Positions 15,163-17,118 of a stretch of DNA of 32,000 nt are shown piece after piece; the first letter of the stretch is position 1, and the number at the start of each line of letters is the position of its first letter. The translations under genes and the position numbers were made by a program. Source of the DNA: an uncultured Actinomycetes bacterium (GTDB taxonomy: Bacteria > Actinomycetota > Thermoleophilia > UBA2241); the NCBI GenBank assembly GCA_963767005.1, contig CAVYCN010000004.1:441301-473300 (forward strand), written 5' to 3'. Below the pieces are notes generated by a model. That model did no database searches, had not been told where the DNA came from, and saw only the letters and a list, made by a program, of their open reading frames with translations.

Positions 15163-15545
15163 AAGTCGTCAGAGAGCCCGTGGCGCCCGACAGCCTTGTC
15201 GATGTGGTGCCGTTCTTCAAAGTGTTCTGTAACTCGACCCGTGCCCAGATCATCGACTTTCTGCTGAGAGGCGAACGCTGTGTCTGCGAGATGACCGGGC
15301 CGCTCGACCAGAGTCAGCCCCTGGTCTCCCATCACCTCGCCCTGCTGCGTGACGCCGGCATTGTGCGCATGCGCAGCGAGGGTGCGCGCACCTACTACTC
15401 CATCGACTGGGAGCGGTTCGACGGCGAGCTCAAGGGCTTCCTCGATTACGTCGGTCAGCGGCGCAGCGCACCGCACGACGCCGACGCCACGCGCAGCGCC
15501 TGTGCGGTAGCCGCCAAGCCGGCGAAGAAGCGCAACGCCTCATGA
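15159..15545 (+). CDS. arsR: ArsR-family metalloregulator
   Basis: [70 protein letters not shown] metal-binding-type motif; overlaps the acr3 stop. Confidence 0.93.
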
Positions 15546-16837
15546 CGACAAAAGGAGAGCGGGGCGTGGCAGACGACGCGACAGGCGTGGGGGAGACGGA
15601 CGAGCAGGGTCTGGCCGGCAGCGACTGCTGCGCTTCGTTGCCGGCATCCGGCGGCTCATGCTGCGATAGCACCGTGGAGTCCGCCGTTCCGACTCCGCAG
15701 AGCGCGTGCTGTGGCGCGTCCGCCAAGCAGCCGCAAAAGGAGCCCCAGCAGAGCTCCTGCTGCGGCGCCGCGACGGCGCGGCCGGCCGAGTACAGCTACG
15801 GTCCCGCCGCCTACATCACGGGCACGATCGAGACGCCCGCCGGGGATATCCCGCGAGTGTCCCGCGAGATCGAACGCAGCGATCGCCTGGGCGCCTGGCG
15901 GGTGCGCTGGGGCTTCGGTCGCAATGACTACCGCGTAAAGCCCGGTCTGTACGGGCTGGGCACGCCCGACGCAGCTGCGCCCGTACTGGTCACCGCAAAC
16001 TACAAGCTCACCTTCGACGCGCTGCGCTCGTCGCTCGCCGATCTCGATGCCTGGCTGCTTGTCGCAGACACGCGCGGCGTCAACGTCTGGTGCGCGGCCG
16101 GCAAGGGCAGCTTCTGCGCCGAGGAGATCGCTCGCGTGGTTCACGAGACGCGTCTTGCCGAGATCGTCGATCACCGGCGGCTGGTGCTGCCGCAACTCTC
16201 GGCGCCGGGAGTCGCCGCCCACAAGGTCAAGGAAGCCTGCGGCTTTCGTGCCGTCTTCGGGCCGGTGCGCGCCGTCGACCTGCCCGCCTTTGTGGCCGCC
16301 GGCATGAAGGCCGACCCGCAGATGCGCGCCGTCACCTTCGACGCGCGCGAGCGCGCCGTCCTCACACCGGCCGAGCTGCAGGTGGCCTGGGGCCGCCGCA
16401 TGATGTTGGCCTACGCCGGCATTCTGGCCGTCTCGGCGATCGGCCACGACGGCGTATCCCTCAGGCGGGCCGCGCGTCGCGGTGGGCCCGTCATCGCGGG
16501 CACCTGGTTTGCCCTGCTCGCGGGTGGCGCCGCAACGCCGCTCGCCCTGCCCTGGCTGCCGGGCCGCGCCTTCTCGGCGAAAGGTGCTGTGGCGGGAGGA
16601 GTTGCGGCAGTGGCCGCTGCGGCGGTGTTTCGCCGCCGGCTCTCGCCGGCCGCAAAGCTCGCTCTGCTGGCGGGCGTGCCTGCCGTCTCCTCCTATGCCG
16701 CCATGAACTTCACCGGCTCGTCGCCGATCACCTCGCCCTCCGGTGTCGAGCTCGAGATGCGCCGCGCGCTGCCCTGGCAGGCCGCGGCATCGGTCGTGGC
16801 CGTCGGCGCCTGGCTTGCCCACAGAATGGGAAGGTGA
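15542..16837 (+). CDS. hgcA: HgcA-type corrinoid protein (mercury methylation) with Cys-Cys-rich N-terminal extension
   Basis: Cap-helix motif NVWCAAGK at 16082-16105 in GVNVWCAAGKGSFCAEEIARVV; AAHKVKEACGFRAVFGPVRAVDLPAFV; C-terminal TM segments and FTGSSPITSPSGVELEMRRALP; followed directly by hgcB. Confidence 0.92.
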   Translation: MTTKGERGVADDATGVGETDEQGLAGSDCCASLPASGGSCCDSTVESAVPTPQSACCGASAKQPQKEPQQSSCCGAATARPAEYSYGPAAYITGTIETPAGDIPRVSREIERSDRLGAWRVRWGFGRNDYRVKPGLYGLGTPDAAAPVLVTANYKLTFDALRSSLADLDAWLLVADTRGVNVWCAAGKGSFCAEEIARVVHETRLAEIVDHRRLVLPQLSAPGVAAHKVKEACGFRAVFGPVRAVDLPAFVAAGMKADPQMRAVTFDARERAVLTPAELQVAWGRRMMLAYAGILAVSAIGHDGVSLRRAARRGGPVIAGTWFALLAGGAATPLALPWLPGRAFSAKGAVAGGVAAVAAAAVFRRRLSPAAKLALLAGVPAVSSYAAMNFTGSSPITSPSGVELEMRRALPWQAAASVVAVGAWLAHRMGR

Positions 16838-16842
16838 GCGCG

Positions 16843-17118
16843 ATGCCGCAACTGCGCTACATCGACCAAGCCGTCACATTGGAGCTCGACGTAGGACGCT
16901 GCAACGGCTGCGGTCTCTGCCTGGCAGTCTGCCCGCGCGCCGTCTTTGCCCTCGCCGACGGTCGCGCCTCACTGGTGGATCGAGGCGCCTGCATCGAGTG
17001 CGGCGCCTGCGCCCTCAACTGCGTGTCTGGCGCTATCAGCGTCGATTCCGGTGTGGGCTGCGCACAGGCGATAATCCACGGCTGGCTGACGGGCGGCGAG
17101 CCCAGCTGCGACTGCTAA
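16843..17118 (+). CDS. hgcB: HgcB-type dicluster ferredoxin (alternative in-frame GTG start at 16834 overlapping the hgcA stop)
   Basis: MPQLRYIDQAVTLELDVGRCNGCGLCLAVCPRAVFALADGRASLVDRGACIECGACALNCVSGAISVDSGVGCAQAIIHGWLTGGEPSCDC: two [4Fe-4S] motifs including CIECGAC, the extra GVGC cysteine and terminal CDC. Confidence 0.92.
   Translation: MPQLRYIDQAVTLELDVGRCNGCGLCLAVCPRAVFALADGRASLVDRGACIECGACALNCVSGAISVDSGVGCAQAIIHGWLTGGEPSCDC

Follow-up and report, generated by a model that had tools for sequence, protein, structure and literature searches.

The window, by which we mean the whole stretch of 32,000 nucleotides that was analysed, comes from an uncultured Thermoleophilia-type actinobacterium (Actinomycetota) and carries on its forward strand the genes acr3 (13948-15162, +), arsR (15159-15545, +), hgcA (15566-16837, +) and hgcB (16843-17118, +). 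The product of acr3 is identified as an arsenite efflux permease by the TIGR00832 equivalog model (450.8 bits, cutoff 282.8), and the stop codon of this gene overlaps the start of arsR in an ATGA at 15159-15162. The arsR product is a metalloregulator with the motif GERCVCEM (CVC), a putative counterpart of the CXC cysteines that classical As(III)-responsive ArsR repressors have in helix alpha-3 (ELCVCDL-type site), and is matched by Pfam HTH_5 with 54 bits and by the NCBIfam model HTH_metalloreg NF033788 with 78.7 bits (cutoff 55), its score against the E. coli-type model PRK10141 being 53.7 where the cutoff is 97. Divergently from acr3 lies an arsC-like gene for an arsenate reductase of the low-molecular-weight (LMW) phosphatase type (13383-13817, -; Pfam LMWPc, 73 bits), whose product has a CVHNSCRS P-loop and a downstream cysteine pair in VCERANRECP and, judging from these motifs, would be of the thioredoxin-coupled type. 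The intergenic region between arsC and acr3 contains a promoter-like site, TTGACC-18-GATAAT (13901-13930, +), which is recognised by its match to the sigma-70 consensus alone and is the sole match of this kind in 13300-18500; no inverted repeat that could be an ArsR operator was found in 13800-14000. The left edge of the conserved block is formed by a Metallophos (calcineurin-like phosphoesterase) gene (12635-13468, -; Pfam Metallophos_2, E 1e-22), and DNA homologous to it occurs at the matching relative position in the related loci L001, L002, L003 and L005. Downstream of hgcB follows a gene for a DUF4213/DUF364 protein, a family labelled 'putative heavy-metal chelation' (17149-17922, +; DUF364 125.9 bits, DUF4213 56.1 bits), and beside the right end of the block stands a tRNA-Glu(UUC) gene (18182-18257, -; ARAGORN and Rfam). 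We rejected the DUF4213/DUF364 protein as a third component of the system, because its gene is shared with the closest relatives (L002, L081, L082) alone, whereas L001 and L003-L007 lack it.

The longest open reading frame of hgcA (15542-16837, +; 431 aa) begins at an ATG at 15542 that overlaps the arsR stop codon. The true start is probably the GTG at 15566, because an AGGAG Shine-Dalgarno sequence lies 8 nt upstream of it and because the database protein P0001, identical to the window HgcA, is annotated from this codon (423 aa). Third-position GC content (GC3, 0.84-0.86) favours the forward-strand frames, the N-terminal extension of HgcA included. The NCBIfam equivalog model HgcA_corrinoid NF040863 matches residues 103-428 with positions 1-323 of its 325, at 409.2 bits (E 1e-122, cutoff 275). 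The cap-helix motif NVWCAAGK, which the sequence-only reading had pointed out in this frame, is indeed there (16082-16105, +); it conforms to the HgcA pattern N(V/I)WCA(A/G)GK, cysteine included, and contains the predicted cobalt-ligating Cys184 (Cys176 when counted from the GTG start). Across 121 diverse HgcA proteins its N, W, C, G and K never vary; HgcA representatives with E below 1e-30 number 433 in all.

That reading had also described a soluble corrinoid domain followed by a hydrophobic C-terminal region and had proposed structure modelling as a check, and both hydropathy and the AlphaFold2 (AF2) model bear the description out. The model, built on a diverse 121-sequence alignment, is a confident one (pLDDT 86.5, pTM 0.80) and shows a Rossmann-type domain and five long C-terminal helices, while a model from a shallow clade-only alignment reached a pLDDT of 55.6 and was discarded. 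NVWCAAGK sits in helix 174-180 of the retained model. The transmembrane domain (16394-16834, +) is defined by hydropathy segments together with the AF2 helices 277-291, 299-326, 336-354, 361-380 and 391-422 (423-aa numbering), and the helices spanning residues 277 to 422 have pLDDT values above 90. [quoted passage not shown] When the PDB was searched by sequence, the only matches were the CFeSP large-subunit corrinoid domains of these three entries, covering residues 130-251 of HgcA.

The hgcB gene starts 5 nt past the hgcA stop codon with a Shine-Dalgarno sequence of its own; of the 82 loci examined, 79 have hgcB after hgcA. Its 91-residue product aligns to positions 1-87 of 93 of the NCBIfam model HgcB_ferredoxin NF040864 with 113.7 bits (cutoff 99), and the ferredoxin layout expected for HgcB is present in full: cysteines 20/23/26/30 and 50/53/56/60 form two CxxCxxCxxxC [4Fe-4S] motifs, one of which includes CIECGAC in agreement with the pattern C(M/I)ECGAC, Cys73, the strictly conserved cysteine some 12 residues behind the second motif, lies within GVGC, and C89 and C91 belong to a terminal SCDC. 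The cysteine numbering of the ND132 HgcB, Cys73 among them, has been published (PMC7305189), and Cys 20, 23, 26, 30, 50, 53, 56, 60 and 73 occupy the same positions in both proteins. The C-terminal form varies across loci, being CC in 43 of 79 and CxC in 19 of 79. With both proteins passing their own equivalog models, a check that the sequence-only reading had itself named, the proposal of an hgcAB mercury-methylation gene pair at 15542-17118 is confirmed at the level of family membership.

The curated models also address whether a paralogue of the CFeSP/AcsC/CdhD type, or a non-methylating fused HgcAB-like protein, has been mistaken for HgcA. Pfam sees in HgcA a CdhD domain alone (residues 130-240) and the crystal structures matched by sequence are CFeSP large subunits only, as a paralogue would lead one to expect; however, the AcsC model NF003195 yields 80 bits against a cutoff of 306, with the corrinoid domain alone matching, whereas the HgcA model is passed by a wide margin. 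The fused HgcAB-like model NF043039 gives 198 bits for HgcA and 52 bits for HgcB against a cutoff of 285, and the two reading frames are not fused, hgcA ending in a stop codon 5 nt before hgcB begins. The CFeSP large subunit (AcsC/CdhE) of the Wood-Ljungdahl pathway does have a homologous corrinoid Rossmann domain (29-31% identity and 1.4-1.5 A rmsd over 124 columns; 2h9a, 4djd), but this is aligned at residues about 317-440 of chains of roughly 445 residues, whereas the window HgcA continues into five membrane helices; moreover, the CFeSP position aligned to the cap-helix cysteine is not a cysteine, and this cysteine is present in the window protein. Because of the model scores and the domain architecture, a paralogue or a fused protein can be regarded as effectively refuted. 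Database proteins that look like natural HgcA-HgcB fusions (P0122, P0131) are most simply explained by a one-base indel in those other assemblies, and we disfavour genuine fusion because, joined to the end of the fifth membrane helix, a ferredoxin would presumably face the wrong side of the membrane.

The suggestion that the genome is probably actinobacterial holds, since the best genome matches are metagenome-assembled genomes (MAGs) of Thermoleophilia/Actinomycetes and the window HgcA nests within a single HgcA clade of such MAGs. The nearest of these genomes show 60-79% amino acid identity in HgcA, the closest having 88% nucleotide identity, and metagenomes contain over 120 protein clusters of this clade at identities of 60% or higher. 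The pair itself is not new, because Thermoleophilia hgcAB were published in 2020 (PMC7438021), the relative P0103 already bears the PGAP title 'mercury methylation corrinoid protein HgcA [Thermoleophilia bacterium]', and a protein identical to the window HgcA is already in NCBI/ENA. McDaniel et al. 2020 describe 17 hgcA+ Actinobacteria, four of them Thermoleophilia (PMC7438021). The earlier remark that actinobacterial hgcAB are known from sparse, metagenome-based reports is accurate. That set includes the Thermoleophilia order UBA2241 and belongs to the same class-level lineage as the window; it likewise consists of MAGs, from soils, permafrost and lakes, and has the same gene pair with a putative regulator upstream (PMC7438021). 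The window genome differs from those of that set, no GTDB species representative exceeding 79% amino acid (88% nucleotide) identity, and neither the acr3-arsR-hgcAB operon nor a Cys-Cys tail on HgcA is met in the available text of that report (PMC7438021). We found no experimental mercury methylation by an actinobacterial hgcAB in the literature searched.

Among related MAGs the block of roughly 5.3 kb occurs in differing genomic contexts with flanks that are not syntenic, and this broken synteny, the one sign of it, suggests that the block may be mobile. No att-like direct repeats were found between the tRNA-Glu side and the left block edge, no integrase or transposase domains among the ORFs scanned around the block, and no HgcA homologues on any PLSDB plasmid. 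The same lack of synteny could be taken to mean that the hgcAB segment is non-actinobacterial, brought in by chimeric assembly or binning, or that it is a decaying, non-functional copy, all the more as the match between the ENA contig L082 and the window begins only at 14281, inside acr3, with unrelated sequence upstream, and as sister assemblies carry frameshifts (L002 hgcA, P0122, P0131). In the window, however, all genes of the block are intact, with GC3 values of 0.80-0.87 that are similar to those of neighbouring genes; the identical HgcA protein lies on a contig of 573 kb; collinearity between L081 and the window extends for more than 20 kb and takes in the DNA on either side of the block; and each of the close relatives lies on a long contig with a Thermoleophilia/Actinomycetes label. 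Each frameshift amounts to a single-base difference in another assembly and is most simply put down to a sequencing or assembly error. A chimeric or decaying segment is thus very improbable.

Having placed the pair in its family and lineage, we regard two points as less ordinary, namely the position of hgcAB inside an arsenic-resistance operon and the disordered tail of HgcA with its four Cys-Cys pairs, neither of which the sequence-only reading had mentioned. With respect to the former, hgcA and hgcB are the last two genes of an arsenic-type operon, acr3-arsR-hgcA-hgcB, whose co-transcription is to be expected from the gene layout. This order recurs in L001, L002, L003 and L005, and a linkage between hgcAB and ars genes is seen independently in L031, L053 and L063, although at most of the hgcAB loci examined no ars neighbour was detected. 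The CVC motif is kept in the hgcAB-linked ArsR proteins of L001, L002, L003, L005, L013 and L021, with CLC in L039. Both a link of ArsR with hgcAB and their co-localisation with ars genes have been reported (bioRxiv 10.1101/2022.10.17.512643). From the operon layout, the overlapping codons, the promoter-like site and the CVC-type ArsR, we infer that expression of hgcAB would most likely be controlled by this regulator and induced by As(III).

With respect to the latter, HgcA has an N-terminal extension of about 80-95 residues (about 15566-15847) that lies outside the NF040863 match and contains four vicinal cysteine pairs (15626-15763, +), C29C30, C40C41, C56C57 and C73C74 in the 431-residue numbering. 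All eight cysteines of the tail are paired, an arrangement reached in 4 of 200000 shuffles (p = 4/200000), and pLDDT values of 35-55 across residues 1-70 of the AF2 model predict disorder. The tail is kept in the clade with a copy number varying between 0 and 6 pairs, and about 39% of diverse HgcA representatives have a similar Cys-Cys tail; the HgcA of D. caledoniensis, a close relative of ND132, has 338 residues and no such tail. We found no description of an N-terminal cysteine tail of HgcA in the open-access literature searched, absence there being no proof of novelty. A tie between the tail and the ars neighbourhood was considered and rejected, multi-pair tails occurring equally in loci where no ars genes are detectable (L008, L011, L014, L026). 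Vicinal cysteine pairs are ligands of both As(III) and Hg(II), as in ArsD and MerA, and the pairs of ArsD likewise lie in a flexible segment of adjacent cysteines near a metal-processing site. Such segments are also the C-terminal Cys-Cys of MerA and that of HgcB (PMC7305189). The HgcA tail has no sequence homology to any of these three, the likeness being one of composition and position only, and unlike them it is repeated and variable in copy number. Most plausibly, though speculatively, it would act as an additional thiol arm that catches ions of soft metal(loid)s close to the active site.

Taking the family models, the hallmark residues, the fold, the gene order and the clade placement together, we consider it highly probable that the window encodes a bona fide orthologous HgcA-HgcB pair set in an arsenic-type operon; by homology, this pair would methylate mercury. 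The experimentally characterised pair of Pseudodesulfovibrio mercurii (Desulfovibrio desulfuricans) ND132 has the same two-gene arrangement and the cap-helix motif with its cysteine, its HgcA has the same architecture of corrinoid Rossmann domain and five-helix membrane domain (52% identity to 9a0b_A over 325 columns), its HgcB agrees with the window protein in the positions of both [4Fe-4S] motifs and of Cys73, and there too an ArsR-family gene immediately precedes the pair. The differences are that the Cys-Cys tail is missing from the 338-residue Desulfovibrio-type HgcA, that HgcB ends in SCDC in the window and in CC in ND132, that the upstream ArsR has a classical CVC motif in the window whereas a four-cysteine site is described for the ArsR2 of ND132, and that the window hgcAB stands behind acr3 in an ars operon of a high-GC actinobacterial host, unlike in ND132. 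By homology with ND132, HgcA would be anchored in the membrane by its five helices and would hold the corrinoid in the cytoplasmic Rossmann domain, where the cap-helix Cys184 is predicted to be the lower axial ligand of cobalt. A folate-linked donor would methylate the corrinoid, and the methyl group would then pass to Hg(II) to give methylmercury. The two-[4Fe-4S] ferredoxin HgcB would re-reduce the cobalt to Co(I), and its Cys73 and C-terminal cysteines (C89 and C91 in the window protein) would pass Hg(II) and CH3Hg+ in and out.

Whether mercury is also the native substrate of a true HgcAB orthologue is another matter. The pair might serve natively in the handling of arsenic or other soft metal(loid)s, or in another corrinoid reaction such as halomethane dehalogenation, with mercury methylation as a side reaction. 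In favour of this are the placement within a canonical ars operon (acr3, CVC ArsR, divergent arsC) that is kept in the clade, the independent linkages in three further loci, and the affinity of vicinal cysteine pairs for both As(III) and Hg(II). Gionfriddo et al. report an arsenic response of hgcAB and a heightened As(V) sensitivity in a delta-hgcAB strain, and a 2026 preprint describes CCl4 dechlorination by heterologously expressed HgcAB. Arsenic as a substrate of HgcAB is, however, only postulated, and neither the lack of a detectable ars neighbour at most loci examined nor the equal presence of Cys-Cys tails in loci without ars genes favours such a role. We therefore give this possibility limited credit; it concerns native function and is compatible with a capacity to methylate mercury, so the reading of an orthologous mercury-methylating pair would stand beside it. 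A broader proposal, which we put forward tentatively and hold to be rather unlikely as a whole, is that in this clade hgcAB belongs as a functional module to an acr3-arsR-hgcA-hgcB operon that As(III) induces, with the Cys-Cys tail acting as a capture arm for Hg(II) or As(III). If this were true, what hgcAB natively does and how it spreads horizontally would both be tied to metal(loid) stress, and the length of the tail would predict methylation efficiency.

The methylmercury that enters food webs is made by microbes with hgcAB, and the interpretation of hgcA surveys in soils, permafrost and paddies is affected by which lineages carry functional copies; the locus described here adds one more intact and well-assembled example from Thermoleophilia. 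The Cys-Cys tail, missing from the model proteins, is a feature directly testable by mutagenesis. Physically built into a classical arsenic operon, this hgcAB pair provides a clean case that bears on what HgcAB evolved for.

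Analysis of the two proteins with the NCBIfam equivalog models settled in favour of HgcA and HgcB the question, posed by the sequence-only reading, of whether the first is HgcA or a CFeSP-type paralogue. HgcA scored 409.2 bits against HgcA_corrinoid (cutoff 275), spanning the whole model, and HgcB 113.7 bits against HgcB_ferredoxin (cutoff 99); for HgcA, the AcsC/CFeSP gamma model (80 bits against a cutoff of 306) and the HgcAB-like fusion model (198 bits against 285) were rejected. Pfam identified in HgcA only the generic CdhD corrinoid domain (aa 130-240), and the crystal structures matching it by sequence were exclusively CFeSP large subunits, over aa 130-251, which lack a cysteine where HgcA has its cap-helix Cys. 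Structure prediction with AlphaFold was poor with a clade-only alignment (pLDDT 55.6) and confident with 121 diverse HgcAs (pLDDT 86.5, pTM 0.80), yielding from the N- to the C-terminus a disordered stretch (1 to ~75), a beta-hairpin, a Rossmann-type domain within which NVWCAAGK forms a helix, and five long helices (277-422). The top Foldseek match in the PDB library was 9a0b_A (E 3e-21, 52% identity, 325 columns), a deposited computational model of the HgcAB complex of Pseudodesulfovibrio mercurii ND132, followed by CFeSP structures matching in the corrinoid domain only.

The longest hgcA open reading frame occupies 15542-16837 on the forward strand (431 aa) and its translation contains NVWCAAGK at 16082-16105, as first described from sequence; hgcB, encoding a 91-aa ferredoxin, lies directly downstream on the same strand (16843-17118), where CIECGAC, GVGC and the C-terminal cysteines of the proposed HgcB layout were all found. 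The HgcB cysteines stand at 20/23/26/30, 50/53/56/60 (with CIECGAC), 73 (GVGC) and 89/91 (SCDC), the same positions as in ND132 HgcB, whose cluster ligands are 20, 23, 26, 30, 50, 53, 56 and 60 and which has an essential Cys73 and C-terminal cysteines (PMC7305189). The C-terminal CxC of the window was present in 19 of 79 loci and CC in 43. Because GC3 is 0.84-0.86 in hgcA, its N-terminal part included, and 0.80 in hgcB, both frames are considered coding rather than large opposite-strand shadow ORFs. Two start codons are candidates for hgcA, ATG 15542, which overlaps the arsR stop codon (ATGA), and GTG 15566, which is preceded at 8 nt by an AGGAG Shine-Dalgarno and is where the identical database entry P0001 (423 aa) begins; on these two grounds GTG 15566 is likelier to be the true start. 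Two other database HgcA proteins, P0122 (517 aa, on a 903-kb contig) and P0131, each from another assembly, appear as HgcA-HgcB fusions because of a single differing base close to the 3' end of hgcA, with a single frame running through the joining region (…AWLAQQNGKVSAMPQL…; compare window 16820-16845), and the window's own hgcB frame is open upstream to 16090. The fusion, though seen twice, is probably an indel error.

Examination of the surrounding genes pointed to an arsenic-type operon extending from acr3 to hgcB. The ACR3 arsenite permease gene (13948-15162; TIGR00832, 450.8 bits) is followed by arsR (15159-15545), hgcA, hgcB and a DUF4213/DUF364 gene, with ATGA overlaps at the acr3/arsR and arsR/hgcA junctions and a gap of 5 nt between hgcA and hgcB; arsC of the LMW-phosphatase type lies divergently upstream of acr3 (13383-13817, reverse strand). 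The arsC/acr3 intergenic region holds a consensus match to a sigma-70-like promoter (13901-13930), and no second such match was found in 13300-18500. The GERCVCEM motif of ArsR has the classical CXC pattern of arsenite sites; it is kept in ArsRs linked to hgcAB across the clade and in other Actinomycetota, and is unlike the site with four cysteines reported for ArsR2 of ND132. Four related loci (L001, L002, L003 and L005) share the order acr3-arsR-hgcA-hgcB, acr3 being divergent in another, L006, and hgcAB is also flanked by ars genes in a planctomycete and in one MAG each of Bacillota and Syntrophorhabdus. The literature already describes hgcAB lying together with arsR and other ars genes, as well as hgcAB transcription that responds to arsenic (bioRxiv 10.1101/2022.10.17.512643). 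The DUF4213/DUF364 'putative heavy-metal chelation' gene (17149-17922) starts 30 nt after hgcB with its own Shine-Dalgarno; since it is confined to the closest relatives, it was rejected as a conserved hgcAB partner and probably lies outside the hgcAB system.

The HgcA HMM begins at aa 103, and the low-complexity stretch preceding it is predicted by AlphaFold to be disordered. This N-terminal extension (15566-15847) contains eight cysteines, all in four adjacent pairs (SDCCAS, GSCCDS, SACCGA and SSCCGA; Cys-Cys at 15626-15631, 15659-15664, 15707-15712 and 15758-15763), a number of pairs that only 4 of 200,000 shuffled tails reach. Within the clade the pairs range from 0 to 6 per tail, and Desulfovibrio-type HgcA (338 aa) has no tail. 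When the core domain alone was searched against 1.84 billion representatives, 433 were at HgcA level (E below 1e-30); of the best 150, 129 were full-length, and of those 50 (~39%) had at least one pair in the N-terminal extension and 21 at least two, with 175 of 290 tail cysteines in adjacent pairs against ~40 expected by chance. CCG or CCPP repeats occur in tails of diverse HgcAs, including loci L001-L016 and proteins P0152-P0297, those of Desulfuromonadales being CCPP. A specific association of the tail with ars-linked loci was looked for and rejected. By analogy with ArsD and with the Cys pairs at the C-termini of HgcB and MerA, the most plausible role of the tail would be that of a flexible thiol arm capturing soft metal(loid) ions. 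The HgcB and MerA pairs are discussed in PMC7305189; we found no mention of the HgcA tail in the open-access papers searched, a weak negative.

The best species-representative genome matches to HgcA (60-79% protein identity) came from MAGs labelled Thermoleophilia or Actinomycetes, recovered from soils in Denmark (MFD series) and from Chersky permafrost, and a neighbour-joining tree built on the core domain, midpoint-rooted without outgroup and thus indicative only, nests the window in a single clade of the related loci L001-L007, apart from the HgcAs of Coriobacteriia/Anaerosomatales, Desulfuromonadales and Desulfobacterales. Both results bear out the probable actinobacterial origin initially proposed. 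GC is uniformly 62-75% across the window. Similarity to L002, L003 and L005 is limited to ~12,620-17,950 (88% DNA identity to L002 across the block), comprising Metallophos, arsC, acr3, arsR, hgcA, hgcB and, in L002, DUF364, with unrelated flanks. A tRNA lies next to the block, tRNA-Glu in the window (18182-18257) and tRNA-Asn in L002 (6772-6847), and in L007 hgcA follows tRNA-Phe (1228-1303). A block with changing flanks would fit relocation or transfer of a module, in agreement with the horizontal transfer proposed by McDaniel et al. (PMC7438021). Searches for att repeats, for an integrase and for a copy on plasmids found none, and the ~260 non-coding nt between DUF364 and tRNA-Glu (17923-18181) gave no Rfam match at gathering thresholds.

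Could the arrangement be a product of assembly or of decay? The ENA contig L082 (ERZ25039480 contig_42629) matches window 14281-26837 at 99.97% identity and breaks inside acr3, with unrelated sequence upstream, which may be due to rearrangement at the strain level or to chimeric assembly, and frameshifted copies exist in other assemblies; the window runs collinear with another ENA contig, L081, over more than 20 kb, and we consider a chimeric or decaying copy very unlikely. That a CFeSP or fused-HgcAB paralogue was mistaken for HgcA is excluded by HMM scores and architecture and seems to us next to impossible. A native function other than mercury methylation, whether arsenic-related or halomethane dehalogenation, deserves more weight, as a possible though less probable alternative: it is compatible with HgcAB orthology, and halomethane dehalogenation has a precedent in a 2026 preprint.

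For mercury methylation itself, a mechanism can be proposed from the ND132 system (PMC7305189). The Rossmann domain of HgcA would hold the corrinoid, Cys184 serving as its axial ligand, and methyl-Co(III) would donate the methyl group to Hg(II). Co(I) would be regenerated with low-potential electrons from HgcB, whose Cys73 and C-terminal cysteines may shuttle Hg(II) and CH3Hg+. Transcription of hgcAB would probably start from the ars promoter and be relieved by As(III) on ArsR.

Elsewhere in the window, a carbamoyltransferase (OTCase family), a carbamate-kinase-like amino-acid kinase and an agmatine deiminase (PAD_porph, 409 bits) are encoded in a row (24281-27576), divergent from a TetR regulator (23451-24170). 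The row resembles an ATP-generating agmatine deiminase pathway, and such a cluster suggests fermentative capacity. A 993-aa protein with HATPase_c_2, PAS, two GAF and SpoIIE phosphatase domains (7391-10372, reverse strand) and a separate small HATPase_c_2 protein (21498-22079, reverse strand) are partner-switching-type signalling components, and a radical SAM protein of 529 aa that carries a PDZ domain and, at its C-terminus, DUF512 is encoded at 5274-6863 (forward strand).

The same HgcA sequence has already been made public on contigs of up to 573 kb, the relative P0103 is already annotated as HgcA by NCBI, and metagenomes contain the clade in abundance (over 120 clusters at a minimum of 60% identity). 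McDaniel et al. 2020 (PMC7438021) report hgcAB in 17 Actinobacteria MAGs (4 Thermoleophilia, provisional order UBA2241). The hgcAB finding is hence correct but ordinary for the field, Thermoleophilia hgcAB having been known since 2020; the way the operon is built and the Cys-Cys tail, which is widespread and apparently has not been discussed, are testable leads of modest interest.
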